Of a stretch of DNA of 64,000 bases, positions 12,608 through 22,882 are shown in pieces. The notes under the pieces were generated by a model. The model did not search any database and was not told where the DNA came from. It worked only from the letters and a program-made list of their open reading frames with translations. The translations under genes and the position numbers were made by a program. Source of the stretch: Hyphomonadaceae bacterium (lineage in GTDB: Bacteria > Pseudomonadota > Alphaproteobacteria > Caulobacterales > Hyphomonadaceae); contig CANJIL010000006.1 in the NCBI GenBank assembly GCA_947474455.1, positions 4,037 to 68,036 of the forward strand, read 5' to 3'. The first letter of the stretch is position 1, and each line of letters begins with the position of its first letter.

Positions 12608-13663
12608 GTGTTAAACCTCCCGAAAGCTCTCGGACTTATCCTGGCTCACATGCAGACCGCGGCAACAGCGGTCGTCACGTGGTGGTCGAGGATGTCTGTA
12701 GCCGACAAACGGCAGACCCGTCAGCGCGTGCTGACGATCGGCGCCTGCGCGGCCGTGTTCGCTTTCGGCGGGCCCCTCATTGCCCAGCGTTTCGGCGACC
12801 AGAAGGCCCAGGAGGCCTATCGTGCCGACGCTATCGTTCTCGCTCAATCGATCGCCGCCGAAGCCGCAGCCGACAGTCAGCAGCCCGTCCGCCTCGTCTC
12901 CTTCACCAACAAGGCCAGCCCGGCAGCGCTTCTCGATCATGTCTCCCACACTCCAGCCGCCGCCGACCCCGGCGTTAGCTTGCGCTCGCGCGATAGTTTC
13001 GCCATCCGCGGCCTTGTTGGCTTCACGCTTGAGAACCTCGGCAATGGTCGCAACGGGCAGGACGAGGCCGATTGCCTCGCCGAGGCCGTTTACTACGAGG
13101 CCCGCTCGGAAGACACGATCGGCCAGATGGCCGTCGCCGAAGTCGTCATGAACCGCGTGCGCGACCCGCGCTTCCCCAAGACCGTGTGCGCCGTGGTTTA
13201 TCAGGGCCAGTACCGCGACACCGGCTGCCAGTTCACCTTCACCTGCGATGGCTCCCTCGCGCATAAGCCGGAGCGAGAAGCCTGGGACCGGGCCAAGGCC
13301 GTGGCGCTCAACGTGATGCTCGGCCTCAACAAGCCCGTCACCAACCAGGCGACCCACTATCACACCGACTATGTGAACCCGTACTGGAAGGCGGGCATGG
13401 TCGAGACGGATGTCGTCGGCACGCACATCTTCTACCGCTTCCCGAGGACCGGCAAAGAGTGGACCGGCGCCCGCATCGCGCTTGAAGCGCAGGAGATGCA
13501 GGAAAGCATTGTCCCGGCGCCTGTCTTACTCACGGTGGGCGGCGAGGAACCTGCCACGCTCGAAGCGTCGGTAACCGGCTCGCTCGTTCCGGTATCGGTC
13601 GAGCCAGCCGACATCCCGGCCATCGTGCCTGCGACCCAAGTCGCCGACACTCGGCCGCTCTAA
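12608..13663 (+). CDS. cell-wall hydrolase, SleB/Hydrolase_2 domain, with N-terminal membrane anchor
   Basis: 351 aa. CLAEAVYYEARSE..QMAVAEVVMNRV..FPKTVCAVVYQ..QFTFTCDG..ATHYHTDYVNPYW is the SleB-type domain. GTG start at 12608; later starts are possible. Confidence 0.8.
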   Translation: MLNLPKALGLILAHMQTAATAVVTWWSRMSVADKRQTRQRVLTIGACAAVFAFGGPLIAQRFGDQKAQEAYRADAIVLAQSIAAEAAADSQQPVRLVSFTNKASPAALLDHVSHTPAAADPGVSLRSRDSFAIRGLVGFTLENLGNGRNGQDEADCLAEAVYYEARSEDTIGQMAVAEVVMNRVRDPRFPKTVCAVVYQGQYRDTGCQFTFTCDGSLAHKPEREAWDRAKAVALNVMLGLNKPVTNQATHYHTDYVNPYWKAGMVETDVVGTHIFYRFPRTGKEWTGARIALEAQEMQESIVPAPVLLTVGGEEPATLEASVTGSLVPVSVEPADIPAIVPATQVADTRPL

Positions 13664-14523
13664 CTCTCGAAGTCCAATCCAACATCAAGATTGATCGCCG
13701 AGTGGGTCAGCGCGCCCGCAGAAATGTAATCCACGCCGGTCAGCGCGATTGCCTTGACCGTCTCAAGCCGAACGCCGCCTGAAGCTTCGGTCTTGGCAAT
13801 ATCACCAACGATCTCCACAGCCTCCGTCAGCATCGCCACAGACATGTTATCGAGCAGCACCGCATCCGGCCTGTAGGGCAGGGCCTCGCGCAGCTGCCCC
13901 AGCCCATCCACCTCGATCTCGATTGCGCGCAGATGCCCAACCGCCGCCCGCGCTCGCTTGAGGGCGGTCGCAACCCCGCCCGCGGCCGCAATATGATTGT
14001 CTTTGATCAGGATCGCATCATCCAGCCCCAGCCTGTGGTTCAACCCGCCGCCCAGCCGCACCGCGCGCTTCTCCAGCGCCCGGAACCCTGGCGTCGTCTT
14101 CCGAGTGCAGGTGACCTTGGCATTCGTTCCTTTCGCTTCAGCCACGAAGCGCGATGTCAGCGTGGCGACGCCCGACAGTGAGCCGACAAAGTTCAGCATC
14201 ACGCGCTCGGCCATCAGAACCGATCGCGCCGATCCTTCGACCCGGACGAGTGCATCGCCCTTGGCGAACGGCACGCCCTCTTGAACCAGGGTCGTCCACA
14301 CCGCCTCCGGATCGACCAGGCGCAGCGCCAGCCGCGCCGCATCATAGCCGGCGGCGACACCCCCCTCCCGCGCCGCCATCACCGCACGCATGCGGGCGCC
14401 GCCGGGGATCACCGCATCGGTCGTGATGTCTCCCCCCCGTCCGAAGTCTTCGGTGAGGGCGAGGCGAACGAGCGGCTCGATGATAACGTCGGGCAAGAAA
14501 GGAATGGGCAGGAGGTCGCTCAC
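13660..14523 (-). CDS. nadC: nicotinate-nucleotide pyrophosphorylase (carboxylating)
   Basis: Track ORF 13660..14643. A GTG at 14523 preceded by GGAAGGAG lies 1 nt after the nadB TGA and gives ~287 aa. LTEDFGRGGDITT and the C-terminal TIM-barrel motifs are present. Confidence 0.9.
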   Translation of the reverse strand: MSDLLPIPFLPDVIIEPLVRLALTEDFGRGGDITTDAVIPGGARMRAVMAAREGGVAAGYDAARLALRLVDPEAVWTTLVQEGVPFAKGDALVRVEGSARSVLMAERVMLNFVGSLSGVATLTSRFVAEAKGTNAKVTCTRKTTPGFRALEKRAVRLGGGLNHRLGLDDAILIKDNHIAAAGGVATALKRARAAVGHLRAIEIEVDGLGQLREALPYRPDAVLLDNMSVAMLTEAVEIVGDIAKTEASGGVRLETVKAIALTGVDYISAGALTHSAINLDVGLDFES

Positions 14524-14524
14524 G

Positions 14525-16054
14525 TCAGACTCCTTCCGCGATTGCGGAATGCTGGATAAGGGGATCGCCGTCATCGCCACGGCGGATGAAGGTGCGATGG
14601 GGCGCAAGCGTCTCCGGATAATCCGACCGGTAGTGTCCGCCACGGCTCTCCAGCCGCGCCAGCGCTCCCGCCGCGATCAGCCGCGCCGCCATCAGGGCCC
14701 GCGCCGGCCCCACATTCGCGAACGCCGCCTCCATCCAGCCTAGCGTCGCCGCCAATCCGCGCGCCTCACGCACCACGCCCACTTGCGAATGCATCCGCTT
14801 GCGCAGCTCGATCATCGACAGCTCATTCATCTCCGGCGGCGCAATCGCGCTGGCGCCAATCGGTGGTGTCAGCGTTGCGCCCTTCAGTCTGCGCGCAGCC
14901 CGCTCAGCGAACACAACAGCTTCAAGCAGCGAGTTCGACGCCAGCCTGTTCGCGCCATGCGCACCGGTCGAAGCGCTCTCGCCGCAGGCTGACAGGCCCT
15001 CAAGCGAGGTCCGCGCCCACAGGTCCGTCACCACCCCGCCCATGTGATAGTGCATCGCCGGCGCAACCGGTATCGGCGCCACGCGGGGATCGACGCCTGC
15101 CGAACTGCAAGCGGCGAACACGGTGGGGAAATGATCCGGGAAATGCGCGCCGATGGCCTTGCGGCAATCGAGAAACGCCCCGCGTCCTGCTTCCCGTTCG
15201 GCGTGGATCGCGCGCGCAACCTCGTCGCGCGGCGCCAGGTCGCCAAGCTTGTGATAGTCGCCCATGAAGGCGCGGCCAGTCGCATCGATGAGATGCGCGC
15301 CCTCGCCACGCAGCGCTTCGGTCGCCAGAGGCGCCGGGTCGCGACCGATGTCGATTGCCGTTGGGTGGAACTGTACGAACTCCGGATCGCCAATCAGCGC
15401 ACCTGCGCTATAGGCCATCGCCACTGCATCGCCCTGCGAGGATTTTGGATTGGTGGTGATCGCATAGAGTCCGCCCGATCCGCCCGCGCACAGGATTGTC
15501 TCTGCTGCACGAAGCTGGAAAGGGGCGCCGGCCTTCCAACGCGCCAGCACGCCAGCCACGCGCCCATTCGAATCCTGCAGGAGCGCCAGCGCTTTCACCC
15601 CCTCAATCATCTCGATGTGGGAGGATGCGGAGACAGCATAGGCAAGCGCTTCCATGATCGCCTTGCCGGCAAGGTCGCCAGACACCCGCGCCACACGCGC
15701 GCGCGAATGCGCCGCCTCAAGCGACAACGCCAGCTCGCCATCGGCGGTGCGGTCGAAGGGGACTCCAAGCTCCAGCAGGTCGCACACGCGCGCCGGTCCA
15801 TCCTGCGCGATCAGCTTGGCCACGACCGGATCAACAATGCCTGCGCCTGCGGCGAGCGTGTCGGACGCGTGTAGCGAGGGTTCATCCTCGAGCGACAGCG
15901 CTGCGGCAAGGCCGCCCTGCGCCCAGGCGGATGCAGCCGCCTGTCCGATGGGTGCGAGCGCGATGACGGTGCATCGCCGTGGCGCCAGTTTGAGCGCGAG
16001 GAAAAGGCCAGCCAGTCCTCCGCCGACGATGAGGATGTCGCGAGTGGACGTCAA
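14525..16054 (-). CDS. nadB: L-aspartate oxidase
   Basis: 509 aa. FAD motif DILIVGGGLAGLFLAL, RSHSxxAQGG-like region, HYxMGG (HYHMGGV), LESRGGHYR near the C-terminus. Confidence 0.93.
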   Translation of the reverse strand: MTSTRDILIVGGGLAGLFLALKLAPRRCTVIALAPIGQAAASAWAQGGLAAALSLEDEPSLHASDTLAAGAGIVDPVVAKLIAQDGPARVCDLLELGVPFDRTADGELALSLEAAHSRARVARVSGDLAGKAIMEALAYAVSASSHIEMIEGVKALALLQDSNGRVAGVLARWKAGAPFQLRAAETILCAGGSGGLYAITTNPKSSQGDAVAMAYSAGALIGDPEFVQFHPTAIDIGRDPAPLATEALRGEGAHLIDATGRAFMGDYHKLGDLAPRDEVARAIHAEREAGRGAFLDCRKAIGAHFPDHFPTVFAACSSAGVDPRVAPIPVAPAMHYHMGGVVTDLWARTSLEGLSACGESASTGAHGANRLASNSLLEAVVFAERAARRLKGATLTPPIGASAIAPPEMNELSMIELRKRMHSQVGVVREARGLAATLGWMEAAFANVGPARALMAARLIAAGALARLESRGGHYRSDYPETLAPHRTFIRRGDDGDPLIQHSAIAEGV

Positions 16055-16061
16055 GGGATCA

Positions 16062-16535
16062 TCACCCGACCAGATCCAGACGCTTGCGGAATTTCACGGG
16101 AGCCTGACCATACGATTTGAACATCCCATCCATCTCGTCGCCCCGCCAGTTGATCTTCACGGAGAAATGGTCGGCCGCGTAGCGTTCGCGCATCAAGTCC
16201 AGCATATCGGCGGGCTCGACATTGGCGATCTTGTCCACGTGGCTGGTGATCGTTACGTCGTAACCTGTCTGCATGGCGACGCAGCTCTGCTCGGTGTGTA
16301 CTGCCTTCGGCAGGCGAAGCGTGCAGGCCCACACGGCTTTGAATGTGCATTTGTAAGCCTTGTCCGCCGTTTGCGTGATCGTCATGTCGCCATCCAGAGT
16401 GCAGCCATAGCCCATCGGTTTGGTCTTGAACCCCCAGCTGCCGACAGGCGTAGGCGCCTTCTTCATCTGCGCATCGGCGCTTTGCAATGCGAGCGTTGCC
16501 GCGACGATGCAGGGTATGGTGGTGCGCCATGTCAC
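16062..16535 (-). CDS. exported 4-Cys protein, paralog 3 of 3 (unknown family)
   Basis: 157 aa. Signal peptide ..ATLALQSADA, then GSWGFKT, CTLDGDMTITQT, YKCTF, C, QSCVA, and ends DLVG. GTG start overlaps the stop of the upstream paralog (GTGA). Its stop is 7 nt before the nadB start. Confidence 0.7.
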   Translation of the reverse strand: MTWRTTIPCIVAATLALQSADAQMKKAPTPVGSWGFKTKPMGYGCTLDGDMTITQTADKAYKCTFKAVWACTLRLPKAVHTEQSCVAMQTGYDVTITSHVDKIANVEPADMLDLMRERYAADHFSVKINWRGDEMDGMFKSYGQAPVKFRKRLDLVG

Positions 16536-17017
16536 CCGACGAGATCCTGGTCGCGCCAGAAACGGACGCCCGCCTCGCGGGTGGAGTGGAAGACGCCAAT
16601 CAGCTCGCTCTTCTCCGGGCGCACCTTGAAATGATCTGGAGCGTAGGCCTGCGTGGCGAACATCGAGGTTTTGAAATCAGCCGGGCCGGCATCGAGGATG
16701 CGATCGATGGTCGAGGTGATAACGATCTCGCCCTTTTCCATCTTCGCTGTGCAGGACTGCTGCACCCTGGTGAAGGTGGGCCCTTCCGCGCGGGCGCAGT
16801 CCTCACGGCTGACGAATCTGCACGCATAATCGCTCGTCTTCGCAGTGCGTGTGAACGTAATGTCGCCGGTGATGATGCAGCCCTTGTTGGGCAGCACGTC
16901 GGTCTTGAACTTCCATGCGCCGGAAATGTCCGTCTGCATCTGCGCCGACGCCGGCCCGGCGGAGACGAGACCAACGGCGAGAATGGCCGCGAGGCCGAGA
17001 CGTCGAGCGCGCTTCAT
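16532..17017 (-). CDS. exported 4-Cys protein, paralog 2 of 3 (unknown family)
   Basis: 161 aa. Signal peptide MKRARRLGLAAILAVGLVSAGPASA, then GAWKFKT, CIITGDITFTRT, YACRF, C, QQSCTA, RFWRDQDLVG at the C-terminus. Confidence 0.75.
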   Translation of the reverse strand: MKRARRLGLAAILAVGLVSAGPASAQMQTDISGAWKFKTDVLPNKGCIITGDITFTRTAKTSDYACRFVSREDCARAEGPTFTRVQQSCTAKMEKGEIVITSTIDRILDAGPADFKTSMFATQAYAPDHFKVRPEKSELIGVFHSTREAGVRFWRDQDLVG

Positions 17018-17038
17018 GTCGTCCCCGCGATCGCCATG

Positions 17039-17518
17039 CTATCCGACCAGTTCGACATCGCGCCAGAACCGCGCCTTCAGGTGGCGCTGTTCGTCGTAAT
17101 GCTCGCCGTTCATCTCAGCCTTGTTGTTAGACAGCTGCACAATGAAGTTGTCAGCGAGATACCAGTCTTCGGGATTTGGAACCGCCGGGCGGCGTTCGAT
17201 CACCTTGTTGACTTTCGATTTGATCGCGACCTGCTTGCCGATGCGCTGCGCGGTGCACGACTGCTGCACCTTGATGTACAAATTGCCGTTGATCTTCCCG
17301 CAGATCTGCTCGGACACGAACAGGCAGGTGTAGGTGTTCTTGATCTTGGTCTGGGTGAAGGTCATCCGGCCGGTGATCTGGCAGTCGTTGTCAGCGAACT
17401 TCGACGTGTCGAACAACCAGTCGCCCGCGATGTCATCCGCAAACGCCGGCATGGCGGCGGTCAGCACCATGGTGCAGCCAAAGATTGCCGCCAGCCGTTT
17501 GAGCGCGCTGCGCTTCAT
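17039..17518 (-). CDS. exported 4-Cys protein, paralog 1 of 3 (unknown family)
   Basis: Internal ATG of track ORF 17039..17722 gives 159 aa. MKRSALKRLAAIFGCTMVLTAAMPAFA, then GDWLFDT, CQITGRMTFTQT, YTCLF, C, QQSCTA, RFWRDVELVG. The ATG overlaps the nadA TGA (ATGA at 17515-17518). Confidence 0.75.
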   Translation of the reverse strand: MKRSALKRLAAIFGCTMVLTAAMPAFADDIAGDWLFDTSKFADNDCQITGRMTFTQTKIKNTYTCLFVSEQICGKINGNLYIKVQQSCTAQRIGKQVAIKSKVNKVIERRPAVPNPEDWYLADNFIVQLSNNKAEMNGEHYDEQRHLKARFWRDVELVG

Positions 17519-18657
17519 ATGATCTCGACCGGAACGAAGACGTCGCGCCCCACCTTGAACTTCGGAAACACTTTCGGCTGCTTCAGCGCGAGCATCGCGT
17601 CGATCGCGGCCTTGGCGCGAATGCGGATGTCCTCCGGCACCGTCACCTCGTGCTTCATGTGCAGGAGAGCGTCGTAGATGTTCTCCAGCGAGATGCGCTT
17701 CATGTGCGGGCAGAGGTTGCATGGCTTCACGAACTCCACGCCGGGGTTGTCCGCGGCGACGTTATCGCTCATCGAACATTCGGTCAGGAGGACGACCTTC
17801 CGGGCGCCGGACTCCTTGACGTGGTTCGACAGGGCCGATGTTGAGCCTGCAAAGTCGGCTTCTTCAAGGACATCCGGAGGACATTCCGGGTGCGCCAGCA
17901 CAATGGTTCCCGGGTGGGCGTCACGGATTTGCCGCACATCCTCGCCCGTGAACTTCTCGTGGACCTCACAATGACCCTTCCATGCGATGATTTTCACGTC
18001 CGTGTTGGCGGAGACGTTGCGGGCGAGGAACTCGTCGGGAACCATGATTACACGGTCGACGCCCCACTCTCTGGAGACATGTTCCACGACCTGCGTCGCG
18101 TTGGACGAGGTGCAGGTGATGTCGCATTCGGCTTTCACATCAGCCGTCGTGTTGACGTAGGTGACGATCGGCAGGCCGGGGTATTCCTTCCGGATCAGGC
18201 GCACGTCCGCCCCCGTGATCGAGGACGCCAGCGAGCATCCCGCGCGCATGTCGGGGATCAGCACTGTCTTGTCAGGGCTCAGGATTTTCGAGGTTTCGGC
18301 CATGAAATGCACGCCGGCCTGGACGATGACCTTCGCGTTGGTTTTCGCGGCTTCCCGGGCGAGCTGGAGCGAGTCGCCACGGAAATCGCCGACCAGACGG
18401 AAGACGTCCGGCGTCATGTAATTGTGGGCGAGGATAACGGCGCCGCGCTGCTTCTTGAGCTTGTTGATGTGGAACACGAAGGGCGCGACCGCCGGCCACT
18501 CCATCGGCGTCACGAAGTCCTTCACCTGCTCATAAAGGTGGTCCACAGCGGCCTTCACCTCGTCGGTGTAGGCAAGCCCGCGTTTCTCTGCGGCGGTGGG
18601 CCTGCGGCGGGCGGCGGGTATATCGCAGCCGGGACCGAATTCGATAACGCGGGCCAT
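17515..18657 (-). CDS. nadA: quinolinate synthase
   Basis: Track ORF 17515..18792. The ATG at 18657 (MARVIEFGPG..) is preceded by GGAAGGA. The 45 upstream codons contain two palindromic boxes and look like a leader. AVILAHNYM, VHFMAETSKIL and CPHMK-type motifs are present. Confidence 0.9.
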   Translation of the reverse strand: MARVIEFGPGCDIPAARRRPTAAEKRGLAYTDEVKAAVDHLYEQVKDFVTPMEWPAVAPFVFHINKLKKQRGAVILAHNYMTPDVFRLVGDFRGDSLQLAREAAKTNAKVIVQAGVHFMAETSKILSPDKTVLIPDMRAGCSLASSITGADVRLIRKEYPGLPIVTYVNTTADVKAECDITCTSSNATQVVEHVSREWGVDRVIMVPDEFLARNVSANTDVKIIAWKGHCEVHEKFTGEDVRQIRDAHPGTIVLAHPECPPDVLEEADFAGSTSALSNHVKESGARKVVLLTECSMSDNVAADNPGVEFVKPCNLCPHMKRISLENIYDALLHMKHEVTVPEDIRIRAKAAIDAMLALKQPKVFPKFKVGRDVFVPVEII

Positions 18658-18698
18658 ATCAGTCCTTCCGGCTCCGACAGGGCGGGGATCGCCATTGT

Positions 18699-18715
18699 AC
18701 TCATAGTGAGCATAA
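18699..18715 (-). promoter_or_regulatory. candidate NadQ operator, proximal box (TTATGCTCA-CTA-TGAGT on coding strand)
   Basis: Imperfect palindrome CTCA-N3-TGAG flanked by TTATG, centred about 50 nt upstream of the nadA ATG at 18657. Near-identical to the box at 18778-18794. Confidence 0.5.
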
Positions 18716-18777
18716 GATGGGCCCGAAAAAATGCCTTTCAAGCGAAAGGCGGCATCCGGTTTGTCAGCCCCACTTAA

Positions 18778-18794
18778 ACTCAACTTGAGCATAA
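18778..18794 (-). promoter_or_regulatory. candidate NadQ operator, distal box (TTATGCTCA-AGT-TGAGT on coding strand)
   Basis: Same 9-mer TTATGCTCA and the same TGAGT half-site as the proximal box, 79 nt further upstream. Lies between the nadQ stop (18848) and nadA. Confidence 0.5.
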
Positions 18795-18847
18795 CTAGCG
18801 TCTCATAAAACTGTCACTTCGTCGAGGGGAATAATTTGCCGGGTTTG

Positions 18848-19801
18848 TCAGCCGTGCGGGGTCTGCACTCCAGACACATGCCCCTCGCGCAGCGCCTCGT
18901 GGCGGAAACGATAGAGTTCGGCAGGCCGGCCGCCAGTCGCCTGAGTAAAGGCGCCAAGACCTACGACAAGCTCAGCGCGATCAAGCGCGCGGCGGAAATT
19001 CTGCTTGTGCAGAGGCAGGCCGAGAATTGCCTCGACGACTCTCTGCAGATCGGAAAGCGTGAAACGCTCCGGCATAAGCTCGAAGACCACCGGACGGTAT
19101 TTGATCTTGCCGCGCAGCCGGCCGATGGCGGTCGCGAGGATGCGGCGATGATCCGAGATCATCGCTTCGCCAAGCGCTGCGGGCGGGAGTTTCGAGCGCT
19201 TGCGGCCGCTATCGCGTGACGCCTCCGAGGCAAGGCCCGCTTCGTAAAGCAGCTCGTAGCGCTCCAGCGTCCGTTCCTCGATCCATGGCTGGCCATCGAG
19301 GCCGAAATCGCGGTGCACGCGGGCGAACCGGTCGCTGGCGTTTTTACCGCCTTGATCCGCCCACTCGACGAGGGCAGGAGCGATGGCCTGGTCAATAATT
19401 TCCGGGCGGCCTTTGCGGTGGTCCTCCCACGGGAAATAGCGATGCCAGTCGCGCCACACGGCGTCGAAGGCGGAGATATCCGTGCGCTCCGGCGTCAGGC
19501 CAAGATAGCCTACCGAGATAAGCCTCGCTCCCGAAGGCGCATCGTCGAGTTCGGCCTGTGGCAGCTCACGGCCGAGGTCGCCAAAAGTGTAGAGTTGTTC
19601 GACATAGCCCGGCTCAAACCCCGTCTGGGCGTGCACCCACTCGCGCAGGCCCAGTTCGAACGTTCGATGACCTGCCGGATCAAACCGGCCGTGCGGCAGG
19701 CCCGTTGCGCCGTCCGCATGCCGCGTCGCCAGAGCGTAGGGCGCATCGGCATCGGCGGCGACGATCACAGCGGACAGGCCGACAGCAATTGGCGTGGTCA
19801 T
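18848..19801 (-). CDS. nadQ: Nudix-related transcriptional regulator of NAD synthesis (NadQ/NrtR-like)
   Basis: 317 aa. N-terminal Nudix-like fold without an obvious intact Nudix box. The C-terminal winged-helix segment FTLSDLQRVVEAILGLPLHKQNFRRAL is typical of NrtR/NadQ regulators. Sits immediately upstream of nadA. Confidence 0.7.
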   Translation of the reverse strand: MTTPIAVGLSAVIVAADADAPYALATRHADGATGLPHGRFDPAGHRTFELGLREWVHAQTGFEPGYVEQLYTFGDLGRELPQAELDDAPSGARLISVGYLGLTPERTDISAFDAVWRDWHRYFPWEDHRKGRPEIIDQAIAPALVEWADQGGKNASDRFARVHRDFGLDGQPWIEERTLERYELLYEAGLASEASRDSGRKRSKLPPAALGEAMISDHRRILATAIGRLRGKIKYRPVVFELMPERFTLSDLQRVVEAILGLPLHKQNFRRALDRAELVVGLGAFTQATGGRPAELYRFRHEALREGHVSGVQTPHG

Positions 19802-20322
19802 GGCCGGCTGCTGAAAGAAGAGGGAATCGAGAAGGCCCGCGTCTCACCGGATATCTCGCCCCGCCCGATGGCGGCGACAGCCTTCGCCATGCGTCCGCCG
19901 CGCCCGAGAACATCGTCAGCATGGCCAACGAGCCGTGCGTTTGGCCAAGCCATGGGCGAAGCTTTGCGGATCGTCCAGGCGATCTCCTCTTCATCCGTCC
20001 TGGGATTGTGGACGCAGGCCGTGATGAAGGCGCTCGCGGTGGAGCGGGAAATCCCGGCCCAGCAATGGATCAGCAGAGGGGCGACCCTGTCCCAGCCCTC
20101 GACGAACCGGATCACCCGTTCAGCATCGGTTTGGCTGGGCGCCTGCCAGTCGCCAATGTCGGCCGTGATGTCGTGGACTGCCATCTGCAGGTGGAGATCT
20201 CCGCCCACGTCGGCGAAGTGAGGAAACGAATCGTAAGGACTTAGCAGGCTAACCACACGCGACGGCTTCAGCCTCCTGGCCATTTCGGGAGCGGCTGCGA
20301 GAGAGCAGATCCAGATTGTCAT
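19798..20322 (-). CDS. PTP-loop (HCxxGxxRS) phosphatase-family protein
   Basis: 174 aa. LLIHCWAGISRSTA is a Cys-based phosphatase P-loop. Its stop overlaps the nadQ start by 4 nt. Confidence 0.75.
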   Translation of the reverse strand: MTIWICSLAAAPEMARRLKPSRVVSLLSPYDSFPHFADVGGDLHLQMAVHDITADIGDWQAPSQTDAERVIRFVEGWDRVAPLLIHCWAGISRSTASAFITACVHNPRTDEEEIAWTIRKASPMAWPNARLVGHADDVLGRGGRMAKAVAAIGRGEISGETRAFSIPSSFSSRP

Positions 20323-20331
20323 GGCGCGAGA

Positions 20332-20979
20332 CTAACCCTTTGCTGAGGCTGCATCGACCTCGGTTATCAGCGCCGCGAAACGCCGCAGGAAAAGCGTCTG
20401 GGCCTCGGTCGGTGACAGCGGCGTCATGTCGGGAGGTCCGCCCGGCGGCGGGTGGCCGAAGAAGTTCAGCGCCTCGTCAATATCGAAGCCGGCGAGCCGG
20501 GTTGCTTCGAAGAAGGCCGCGCACTGGTCTGCTTGTTTGACGCGCGCCTTCGCGTCGTCGCTCATATGCGGCGTCAGACCAAAGCGCAGACGGATGGCGG
20601 CCTCAAGCCGCGCTTCGAACTGGCGATAGTCGACGCCGAGCGCCGTCTTGAAGGGCGAGATCATGTCGCCGATCACATACTCGGGCGCATCGTGCAGCAG
20701 CGCGCCGAGCAGGTCGGAAGCGGAAGTCGTCGACCAGAGACGGCCGACAAGAGATTCGACCAGTACGGAATGCTGCGCCACGGAAAAAGCATGCTCGCCT
20801 GTAGTCTGGCCGTTCCAGCGTGCAACGCGCGCAAGGCCGTGCGCGATATCCTCGATCTCGATGTCGAGAGGAGAGGGGTCAAGCAGATCAAGTCTGCGGC
20901 CTGAAAGCATGCGCTGCCAGGCTCGCGGCGAGCCCGGCGTAAGTGTCGTTTTCCAGCTGCTGGATCCGCTCTTTCCCAT
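20332..20979 (-). CDS. HD-domain phosphohydrolase (YfbR-like 5'-nucleotidase family)
   Basis: Track ORF 20332..21036. AWQRMLSGRRLDLLDPSP..IEDIAHGLARVARWNGQT..AQHS..LLHDAPEYVIGD shows the H..HD..D metal ligands. The start at 20979 (M20) is chosen so the conserved AWQRML lies inside. Stop is 9 nt before the phosphatase start. Confidence 0.8.
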   Translation of the reverse strand: MGKSGSSSWKTTLTPGSPRAWQRMLSGRRLDLLDPSPLDIEIEDIAHGLARVARWNGQTTGEHAFSVAQHSVLVESLVGRLWSTTSASDLLGALLHDAPEYVIGDMISPFKTALGVDYRQFEARLEAAIRLRFGLTPHMSDDAKARVKQADQCAAFFEATRLAGFDIDEALNFFGHPPPGGPPDMTPLSPTEAQTLFLRRFAALITEVDAASAKG

Positions 20980-21069
20980 AAGACAGCACCTGCCATCGAA
21001 ATAGTTTCGGCTGCAAGCGGAACCGCAGACTCGCAATCACGTTCGCCATGTGCAGAACGCCAGCGCTCC

Positions 21070-21354
21070 ATGAGCGTGCCAGGCCGAATGGCCAAAGCGT
21101 ACCTCTCAAAAATCTTGCTCGCTTACCTCTGTGAAAGTTTTGCGAGAGGCTTCGTTAATTCGCATGGGTTAGCTTCATTCCAAGTCGCGGGAGAACAGCG
21201 AGACATGTGGGAGTTGATGGTGGACGCAGCGCAAACCCCCGCGCTGCAGTGGGCGGTGATTGCCGCTGCGGTGCTGATCTATCTTGTGAAGGTTATCAGC
21301 TCAGCCGAAGGGCTCCTCATGGGGGATATGTACCAGGACGAACTGGACACCTGA
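21070..21354 (+). CDS. small hypothetical protein with one TM (possibly only 21205..21354)
   Basis: Track ORF. The C-terminal half MWELMVDAAQTPALQWAVIAAAVLIYLVKVI.. has one TM. Lower GC and weak coding signal. Followed by two hairpins. Confidence 0.3.
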   Translation: MSVPGRMAKAYLSKILLAYLCESFARGFVNSHGLASFQVAGEQRDMWELMVDAAQTPALQWAVIAAAVLIYLVKVISSAEGLLMGDMYQDELDT

Positions 21355-21439
21355 TCGCATAGGCGGGAGAGGCTTTCGCCTCTCCTCCCGCGAAAACGTG
21401 TTCTGAATAGACGCCGGCAAAGGCGCGGGTGATGACGGG

Positions 21440-21470
21440 AGGGCGGCCTTACAGGCCGCCCTTCTGATTC
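21440..21470 (+). terminator. hairpin AGGGCGGCC-N5-GGCCGCCCT followed by TTCTGATTC
   Basis: 9-bp perfect stem seen directly. A second imperfect hairpin lies at about 21363-21391. Confidence 0.4.
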
Positions 21471-21544
21471 GGGCCGATCCTTGCGTCTGCTTGGAGAATC
21501 CAGCCTGCGGGTCTAGACAGCGCCAGATCTCCTGGAGCTGTCCG

Positions 21545-22882
21545 ATGTCTCCTACGTTCGATCTCATCCTCAAGGGCGGAAGCGTTGCGACGCCGGGCGG
21601 CATCGCTGTTGCCGACGTGGCCGTCAGCAAGGGCCGCATCGCGGGAATCGGATCGTTCGACGCGTCGCAGGCAGGCGAAGTGTTCGAGGCAACGGGGCTT
21701 CACGTATTGCCTGGCGTGATCGACAGCCAGGTTCACTTCCGCGAGCCCGGCCTCGAATGGAAGGAAGACCTTGAAAGCGGCTCGCGCTCGGCAGCCCTTG
21801 GCGGCGTGACTGCCGTGTTCGAAATGCCGAACACCGACCCGCCCACCACCTCGCCGGAAATGGTGGAAGACAAGTTGGTGCGTGCGAAAGGGCGCATGCA
21901 CACGGACCACGCCTTCTACGCCGGTGCGACGCACGACAACACCGATCTGCTGCCGATCATGGAGCGCATGCCGGGCGTGTGCGGCGTGAAGGTTTTCATG
22001 GGCGCGTCCACGGGCCAGCTGCTTGTCGAAGACGACGAGGGCGTCGAACGTGTTCTGAACGCGATTTCCCGCCGGGCCGCGTTCCATTCCGAGGACGAGT
22101 ATCGTCTCGCCGAGCGCCGTAAGCTGGCCCGTCAGGGCGACTGGACGTCTCATTGCGAAGTCCGCGACGCCGAGGCTGCGATCTCGTCGACCCGGCGCCT
22201 GCTGCGCCTCGCGCGCAAGGCCGGAAAACGCATCCACGTACTCCACGTTACGACAGGCGAGGAGATGGAGATGCTTGCCGCCGCGAAGGACATCGCCACA
22301 TGCGAGGTCACGCCCCAGCATCTGACGCTTGTCGGACCCGAGGATTATGTGCGCCTGAAGGGCTATGCCCAGATGAACCCGCCCATTCGGGATGCGCATC
22401 ATCAGGCCGCGTTGTGGAAAGCGGTCAACGAAGGCATGGCTGACGTGCTCGGCTCGGATCACGCGCCGCACACCATAGAAGAAAAGTCGCGGCCGTATCC
22501 TGCCTCTCCGTCCGGCATGCCCGGCGTGCAAACGCTCGTGCCGGTCATGCTGACGCATGTGGCGGACGGCAAGCTGAGCCTCGAGCGCTTCATCGAACTC
22601 ACTAGTGCAGGCCCACAACGGGTGTTCGGCATCGCCGGCAAGGGACGTATCGCGCTGGGCTATGACGCTGATTTCACCGTTGCGGATATGAAAGCCCGCA
22701 GAACGATCACCCGCGAATGGACGGCTTCGCGCTGTGGCTGGACTCCGTTCGACGGCATGGAAGCCAAGGCGTGGCCGGTTGCAACCTTCGTGCGCGGATC
22801 GCTGGTCATGTGTGACGACGCCCTGGTCGCGCCGGGCAGGGGCGAACCCGTGCGCTTCGTCGAAACGCTGACGCACGCCTGA
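21545..22882 (+). CDS. cyclic amidohydrolase, dihydroorotase/allantoinase-like
   Basis: Track ORF 21491..22882; ATG at 21545 gives MSPTFDLILKGG... GVIDSQVHFREPGLEWKEDLESGSRSAALGGVTAVFEMPNT is type-I DHOase-like, but the first His of the HxH metal motif is Gln. Confidence 0.85.
   Translation: MSPTFDLILKGGSVATPGGIAVADVAVSKGRIAGIGSFDASQAGEVFEATGLHVLPGVIDSQVHFREPGLEWKEDLESGSRSAALGGVTAVFEMPNTDPPTTSPEMVEDKLVRAKGRMHTDHAFYAGATHDNTDLLPIMERMPGVCGVKVFMGASTGQLLVEDDEGVERVLNAISRRAAFHSEDEYRLAERRKLARQGDWTSHCEVRDAEAAISSTRRLLRLARKAGKRIHVLHVTTGEEMEMLAAAKDIATCEVTPQHLTLVGPEDYVRLKGYAQMNPPIRDAHHQAALWKAVNEGMADVLGSDHAPHTIEEKSRPYPASPSGMPGVQTLVPVMLTHVADGKLSLERFIELTSAGPQRVFGIAGKGRIALGYDADFTVADMKARRTITREWTASRCGWTPFDGMEAKAWPVATFVRGSLVMCDDALVAPGRGEPVRFVETLTHA

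Follow-up and report, generated by a model that had tools for sequence, protein, structure and literature searches.

Conserved linkage of an HD-domain hydrolase and a Cys-based phosphatase to the NAD repressor gene nadQ in Alphaproteobacteria

Gene layout and transcription units

The window analyzed here is a stretch of 64,000 nucleotides (nt) from a Hyphomonadaceae bacterium (assembly GCA_947474455.1, contig CANJIL010000006.1, positions 4,037 to 68,036 of the forward strand). On its minus strand, genes for an HD-domain phosphohydrolase (HD), a Cys-based phosphatase (PTP, for protein tyrosine phosphatase) and NadQ, the repressor of de novo synthesis of nicotinamide adenine dinucleotide (NAD), follow one another in the order HD-PTP-nadQ and lead into nadA, nadB and nadC. 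A first-pass annotation made from the sequence had described nine co-directional genes here, with a 9-nt gap between HD and the phosphatase and a 4-nt overlap between the phosphatase and nadQ. All nine minus-strand open reading frames (ORFs) were found where it had placed them in the ORF list of the window, and reading the sequence directly confirmed both junctions: 9 nt separate the HD stop (TAG) from the phosphatase ATG, and the nadQ ATG overlaps the phosphatase TGA by 4 nt, as ATGA. The features discussed below are as follows.

20332..20979, minus strand: HD-domain phosphohydrolase, 215-aa ORF, a candidate YfbR-type mononuclear nucleoside-5'-monophosphatase
19798..20322, minus strand: Cys-based phosphatase (PTP), 174-aa ORF, dual-specificity phosphatase (DSP)/PTP fold, COG5350-type "predicted protein tyrosine phosphatase"
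18848..19801, minus strand: nadQ, COG4111 repressor of de novo NAD synthesis, NrtR_WHD 78.6 bits
20980..21204, minus strand: inferred promoter region of the HD-PTP-nadQ unit, without a NadQ box and common to a small divergent ORF
18774..18794, no strand: NadQ box 1, a palindrome matching ttATRCTCannntGAGYATaa, kept in relatives
18733..18750, minus strand: terminator-like hairpin between the two NadQ boxes, with a 7-bp GC-rich stem followed by a U run
18695..18715, no strand: NadQ box 2, proximal to nadA, a consensus match in both window and genome scans
17515..18657, minus strand: nadA, first gene of the NadQ-repressed unit, Pfam NadA 365 bits, with a conserved ATG
13660-18657, minus strand: NadQ-repressed unit of nadA, three exported paralogs, nadB and nadC, separate from HD-PTP-nadQ

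A single nine-gene operon is a reading that the region between nadQ and nadA does not bear out. Comparison with relatives placed the true nadA start at the conserved ATG at 18657 and not at 18792, giving a nadQ-nadA spacer of 190 nt that contains two NadQ boxes and the hairpin. The published NadQ operator consensus, ttATRCTCannntGAGYATaa (PMC5343134), matched the window twice, at 18695-18715 and 18774-18794, with ~0.01 matches expected by chance. Both boxes fall after the nadQ stop and before the nadA ATG at 18657, and the same two are the sole matches in the whole 3.29-Mb genome. Upstream of HD, PTP and nadQ, no NadQ box was detected, with as many as 3 mismatches allowed, either in the window or across the whole genome. 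Among 100 related loci, 33 carried NadQ boxes, every one just upstream of nadA, and none had a box before HD, PTP or nadQ.

Intergenic gaps across loci were extrapolated from alignments. The HD-PTP gap had a median of 35 nt (at most 30 nt in 41/83 loci) and the PTP-nadQ gap a median of ~35 nt (at most 100 nt in 47 of 50 loci, seven of them -4 overlaps); between nadQ and nadA the median was 409 nt and the gap never fell below 115 nt (32 loci). Boxes confined to the region before nadA, a nadQ-nadA gap of at least 115 nt and the hairpin make a well-supported case, at the level of sequence, for two transcription units instead of one: an operator-free HD-PTP-nadQ unit, then a NadQ-repressed unit starting at nadA. 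The first would be a compact unit supplying NadQ, with translational coupling at the PTP/nadQ junction.

The hairpin at 18733-18750 has a folding energy of -15.9 kcal/mol (z -2.74), and its stem is kept in 4/5 genus-level relatives. This hairpin probably either ends the HD-PTP-nadQ transcript or serves nadA as a leader element. It stands between the boxes and not after both, preceded by box 1 and by a promoter-like site at 18817-18788.

In the published table of the NadQ regulon (PMC5343134), the members are nadA/B/C, nadE, nadD, proA and a single hypothetical gene of Hyphomonas; nadQ itself appears, as an autoregulated gene, for only 3 of the 30 genomes, and the table contains no hydrolase and no phosphatase. 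Because no box precedes them in the window, the genome or the 100 loci, and because they are absent from this table, HD and PTP lie outside the NadQ regulon. No SOS-type or other known operator was recognizable upstream of HD in a genus alignment inspected by eye only, without a systematic search.

Among the downstream ORFs, nadA, nadB and nadC were identified by Pfam/NCBIfam, and the three paralogs between nadA and nadB matched no model in either collection. The Hyphomonas hypothetical gene in the published regulon, HNE_0691 (Leyn 2016), may correspond to these exported paralogs. The listed nadC ORF, with a GTG start at 14643, overlaps nadB by 119 nt (14525-14643). Since nadC alignments extrapolated to the listed start overshoot the nadB stop by ~100-140 nt in 25/25 related loci (one by ~-1600), the real start probably lies farther downstream, ~40 codons from the listed GTG. 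On the other flank, a 49-codon ORF at 21205-21354 on the plus strand diverges from HD; it has a Shine-Dalgarno-like GGGAGA and encodes one hydrophobic helix, and it is kept in 5/5 genus-level relatives. The 225-nt promoter region that it shares with HD (20980..21204) is likewise conserved within the genus.

Conservation of the HD-PTP-nadQ order

We searched 301 evenly drawn alphaproteobacterial genomes (the class sample; matches at E 1e-5 or better) and found the phosphatase in 57, HD in 79 and NadQ in 67; one NadQ-positive genome (G279), flagged as unpublished, enters only the NadQ tally. HD, PTP and nadQ were colinear in 13 sampled genomes, with one more probable case across a contig break, and HD directly preceded nadQ without PTP in 12 further genomes. 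Among the ~33 genomes with strong matches to both HD and NadQ, ~25 had the colinear order HD-(PTP)-nadQ, spread over ~18 families, and tblastn on fetched loci confirmed this order. The linkage is therefore conserved beyond close relatives, a point that the first-pass annotation had singled out for checking.

A profile search with the phosphatase returned 80 named loci, all from Alphaproteobacteria, including Hyphomonadaceae, Caulobacteraceae, Maricaulis, Parvularculaceae, Micropepsaceae and Parvibaculum and, within Hyphomicrobiales, Methyloceanibacter, Methyloligella, Roseibium/Stappia, Aestuariivirga and Pseudolabrys. Of the 77 informative loci, 73 had HD immediately before the phosphatase. 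Immediately downstream, nadQ was present in 40 of the 80, and in ~20 of those 40 nadABC was not nearby; the HD-PTP pair occurred without adjacent nadQ in ~30 loci. That these genes are chance neighbors or mis-called ORFs, with no meaning in their adjacency, is scarcely credible, given that all three proteins are strongly conserved, with their catalytic or DNA-binding motifs intact, and that the same order, spaced as in an operon, is seen in well over 50 loci. The comparisons support well the view that the arrangement occurs far beyond chance and is ancient in Alphaproteobacteria.

In a 401-genome sample of the phylum, only four phosphatase matches, weak or moderate, fell outside this class, and the family appears almost confined to Alphaproteobacteria. 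The genes beside these four matches, which include a methyltransferase, NADH dehydrogenase subunits and unnamed ORFs, gave no clue, and no recurrent partner was seen beside HD in 20 genomes without NadQ. One locus (L061, 7983-11429) has a distant phosphatase paralog (36% identity) beside nadC-nadA on the opposite strand, with nadQ on another contig. Longer forms of the phosphatase comprised nine proteins, of which seven were PTP-NadQ read-throughs, at least four of these (those inspected in full) being close relatives. We rejected them as Rosetta-stone evidence, as the joints of at least those four are Arg-rich out-of-frame stretches that suggest frameshifted assemblies; a 567-aa HD-NadQ ORF in L026 (7151-8854) is doubtful as a fusion, with the same suspected frameshift.

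Co-occurrence of the three families, another check set at first pass, was found for part of the trio. Of 25 PTP orthologs in the class sample, ~19 occurred together with NadQ (base rate ~21%), and all 10 checked genomes with HD-PTP (or PTP alone) away from nadQ encode NadQ elsewhere. HD does not follow this pattern: 33 sampled genomes have an HD ortholog but no NadQ, and ~29 have NadQ but no HD.

These figures bear on the idea, put forward at first pass, of an undescribed pyridine-nucleotide step. The substrates of HD and/or PTP would then be pyridine or ADP-ribose nucleotides, with candidate roles such as a 5'-nucleotidase of nicotinic acid mononucleotide or nicotinamide mononucleotide (NaMN, NMN), an NADP(H) 2'-phosphatase or an ADP-ribose-phosphate hydrolase; or the enzymes would make or destroy the NadQ effector, and the operon would couple repressor supply to trimming of the NAD pool. 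We consider this possible but rather unlikely. The co-occurrence of PTP with NadQ fits such a role, the genomes with HD or NadQ alone do not. PTP-nadQ junctions are tight and often overlapping in 50 loci, the trio stays together where nadABC lies elsewhere, and HD-nadQ adjacency (~25/33) is at least as frequent as that of nadQ and nadA (13/20 genomes); set against this proximity are the lack of an upstream NadQ box and the persistence of HD-PTP without adjacent nadQ. A coupling of this kind would also suit NadQ itself, which, going by the title of a 2022 paper by Minazzato in J Struct Biol, is reportedly a nucleotide (ATP)-responsive Nudix-like protein. Outside Alphaproteobacteria, the searches gave no independent context that would break the confound of synteny by descent.

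The trio also belongs to a longer array. Conserved neighbors are, in order, a divergent dihydroorotase-like gene, a ygfZ/CAF17-type gene, tag (3-methyladenine glycosylase), sometimes FabH-like and Usp genes, then HD, PTP, nadQ and nadABC; past nadABC the array continues with a SleB-like hydrolase and then ppdK (loci L011-L150). In the window, the array (12608-22882) lacks ygfZ and tag, and both the dihydroorotase-like and the SleB-like ends are present. In loci without nadQ downstream, the unit stops after PTP and ppdK comes next. From these arrangements, the nadQ-nadABC block behaves as a separable cassette, with HD-PTP remaining beside tag; the apparent ancestral array was ygfZ-tag-HD-PTP-nadQ followed by nadABC, and nadQ-nadABC apparently became detached in some Hyphomicrobiales lineages. 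The Tag-HD gap is at most 30 nt in 32/41 loci and the YgfZ-Tag gap in 28/44, so these junctions are packed as tightly as PTP-nadQ, which also argues against a pyridine-nucleotide role deduced from spacing. Gene-order conservation here joins functionally unrelated housekeeping genes, and synteny alone therefore cannot prove a common pathway.

We further examined the history of the unit in a FastTree phylogeny of 110 HD sequences, whose backbone is weak and which is indicative only. Most HDs from genomes without NadQ fell near the base, and those of the complete trio were scattered within one large clade. HD-nadQ arrangements were nested singly among trio arrangements, which suggests that PTP has been lost repeatedly, and HD-PTP-only arrangements gathered mainly in a few clades of Hyphomicrobiales. 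In one family, two genomes without HD encode a 206-aa HIT-domain protein between tag and the phosphatase (L057, 8378-8998, minus strand; L058), and the phosphatase of L058 carries an in-frame TGA. A HIT-domain protein in the HD slot weakly suggests that the partner of the phosphatase must be a nucleotide-binding hydrolase.

The two phosphohydrolases and NadQ

The HD protein is an ortholog of Atu1052 (PDB 2GZ4; E 2.8e-74, or 2.7e-84 with the family profile; ~65% identity), a structural-genomics entry annotated as function unknown; our literature search returned no paper on Atu1052 or 2GZ4 and no reported Atu1052 activity. The family profile also matches OxsA (3.6e-7) and YfbR (4.3e-6). Pfam scores were sub-threshold, at 24.1 vs 25.9 bits for the YfbR-like PF12917 with a weak HD_3 match, and the score against NCBIfam NF003009 (YfbR) was 15.9 vs a cut-off of 122. 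Falling under the PF12917 and NF003009 cut-offs, HD is best assigned to a related but separate family of the Atu1052 type and not to the YfbR equivalogs.

Mean column identity of HD across the class is 58%, and R54, W55, H70, H96, D97, E100, D105 and D151 are invariant in 22 orthologs. H70, H96, D97 and D151 reproduce the mononuclear metal-site pattern H...HD...D in a profile search that aligned them with the YfbR motifs, and R54/W55/D105 together with E100 match the YfbR substrate residues R18/W19/D77 and the catalytic E72. In the profile alignment, the RW pair coincides with its OxsA counterpart, and YfbR supplies the equivalents of the H, HD..E..D and D motifs. Thus, E. coli YfbR (PDB 2PAQ), OxsA, Atu1052 and HD align in their metal ligands, in the catalytic Glu and in the residues that bind the sugar (Arg-Trp and Asp); unlike YfbR, HD scores below the family cut-offs and carries an N-terminal extension, an invariant segment of 35 residues without counterpart in YfbR. 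YfbR is specific for deoxynucleoside monophosphates (dNMPs), with W19 sterically hindering ribonucleotides and R18 and D77 binding the deoxyribose, and the equivalent Trp of OxsA was proposed to exclude ribonucleotides (PMC8177086). By homology, HD would be a nucleoside-5'-monophosphatase that disfavors ribonucleotides. The Arg-Trp pair, invariant in the family and reported to exclude ribonucleotides, argues against NMN and NaMN as substrates; the dephosphorylation of these compounds, suggested at first pass, is accordingly disfavored for HD. As for the broader proposal, the operon linkage is real and a pyridine-nucleotide step is possible, though unproven and, for HD, disfavored.

The phosphatase has the P-loop HCWAGISRS. 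Across 23 homologs, the residues of the HCX5RS loop (H86, C87, G90, R93 and S94) are invariant, as are D51, P127, N128 and D136; D51 is the putative general acid, and P127-N128...D136 forms a motif specific to the family, for which 3647 homologs were found. An AlphaFold2 (AF2) model reached a mean confidence score (pLDDT) of 96.6, and its best Foldseek matches were the atypical DUSPs/MKPs DUSP8, 15, 18, 28 and MKP5 (probability 1.0, TM ~0.6, 13-24% identity), so that the model points with high confidence to a dual-specificity phosphatase fold. Like atypical DUSPs (DUSP/MKP catalytic domains and PTPMT1), the protein combines this fold with an HCX5R(S/T) loop and an upstream invariant Asp; unlike them, it is bacterial, shares only ~15-20% identity at TM ~0.6, and has its own P-N and Asp motifs. 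It also differs from any characterized DUSP in being paired with an HD nucleotidase candidate.

Curated models were matched only below their cut-offs, at 26.9 vs 27 bits for PF22785 Tc-R-P, 18.7 vs 33.5 for PF00782 DSPc and 16.1 vs 27 for PF22741 PTP-NADK, and at E 0.01 or better by 14, 21 and 1 of the 23 family members, respectively. We dropped a Pfam subfamily assignment because these are generic DSP-superfamily matches; the Atlas names are likewise generic. The match to PF22741, which covers DSP phosphatases fused to NAD kinase, is weak (E 0.0076); it would favor a pyridine-nucleotide substrate, a value diminished by its occurrence in a single family member. In the literature, a phosphatome survey was the sole source found to mention COG5350.

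In its fold and its HCxAGISRS-type loop, the phosphatase is closest to protein-directed DUSPs/MKPs, and it could accordingly act on NadQ or on another protein such as HD, adding a post-translational layer of control to NAD repression with HD as an unrelated passenger. Translational coupling to nadQ would fix the stoichiometry of such a pair. We regard this as highly improbable: PTP tracks HD (73/77 loci) more closely than nadQ (40/80), it was repeatedly lost while HD and nadQ stayed joined, NadQ works without it in many genomes, and no cognate kinase was seen in the conserved neighborhood.

In NadQ, the C-terminal winged helix matched PF21906 NrtR_WHD (78.6 bits vs a cut-off of 27), and no curated Pfam or NCBIfam model matched the N-terminal half. 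The NadQ (COG4111) regulon has been described for alpha- and betaproteobacteria (PMC2330246, Rodionov 2008; PMC5343134, Leyn 2016). As in those systems, the locus has an NrtR-type winged helix-turn-helix protein, a consensus-matching palindrome and nadA-nadB-nadC as the target beside nadQ; unlike them, nadQ here closes an operon that has no operator and also encodes two phosphohydrolases. An HD-PTP-nadQ operon is not mentioned in the accessible NadQ literature.

Possible roles of the operon

We tentatively favor, at somewhat less than an even chance, the reading that HD and PTP form a pair for (deoxy)nucleotide dephosphorylation or house-cleaning, with nadQ riding in their operon by descent. 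The Arg-Trp pair of HD would select 2'-deoxy or otherwise non-ribo sugars, making a deoxy- or modified nucleotide a more likely HD/PTP substrate than a pyridine nucleotide. Because the phosphatase is almost never found without HD upstream, it may be an HD-dependent partner that takes another phosphomonoester off small nucleotides of the class on which HD acts. HD-PTP would then not be a step of pyridine-nucleotide metabolism, and nadQ, without a promoter or operator of its own, would share constitutive HD-PTP transcription inherited by descent.

Several points weigh against this house-cleaning interpretation. The HD/PTP substrate is deduced purely from homologous residues; the N-terminal extension of HD could alter its specificity, and the neutral, MKP-like P-loop of the phosphatase would suit a protein substrate as well as a nucleotide. 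Moreover, a regulator co-transcribed with enzymes is usually functionally connected to them, the trio is retained even where nadABC lies elsewhere, and PTP occurs almost only in NadQ-positive genomes. A stronger form of the pyridine-nucleotide alternative would make HD and the phosphatase a dedicated two-step system for an NAD-linked nucleotide whose product or substrate is the in vivo ligand of NadQ, so that the operon sets both repressor level and signal. We think this improbable. One candidate would be a long-sought enzyme, the cytosolic NADP(H) 2'-phosphatase of bacteria, acting together with a pyridine/adenine mononucleotide 5'-nucleotidase.

The locus can be set beside known systems. NrtR is a repressor of Nudix origin whose gene lies among NAD and ADP-ribose genes; in NadR, the repressor is fused to NMN adenylyltransferase and ribosylnicotinamide kinase. 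In both, as here, a repressor of the NAD pathway is joined, physically or by operon, to nucleotide-processing enzymes; the difference is that NAD-related substrates have been demonstrated there and the genes belong to the regulon, neither of which holds for HD and PTP. In the Bordetella cluster nadQ-nadC-bug69 (PMC11452294), nadQ likewise shares its operon with a non-canonical accessory gene, for which a function in NAD metabolism is suspected but unproven. That accessory protein is periplasmic, binds quinolinate and is encoded downstream of nadQ, in contrast to two cytosolic phosphohydrolases encoded upstream. The coupling of an NAD repressor to nucleotide enzymes is a known theme, of which HD-PTP-nadQ is a new variant.

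The operon joins NadQ to two phosphohydrolases that lack an assigned substrate; for one of them, a crystal structure is already available (2GZ4). To our knowledge, trimming of the NAD pool in bacteria is poorly known, with gaps that include NADP dephosphorylation and mononucleotide 5'-nucleotidases, and we know of no description of the physiological NadQ signal beyond "ATP-responsive". The operon thus offers a concrete and cheap experimental entry point in tractable alphaproteobacteria. If HD and PTP are deoxynucleotide house-cleaners, a widespread structural-genomics orphan and COG5350 would gain a function, and the locus would document that genes can be co-transcribed with the regulator of a pathway, in a conserved manner, without belonging to that pathway.

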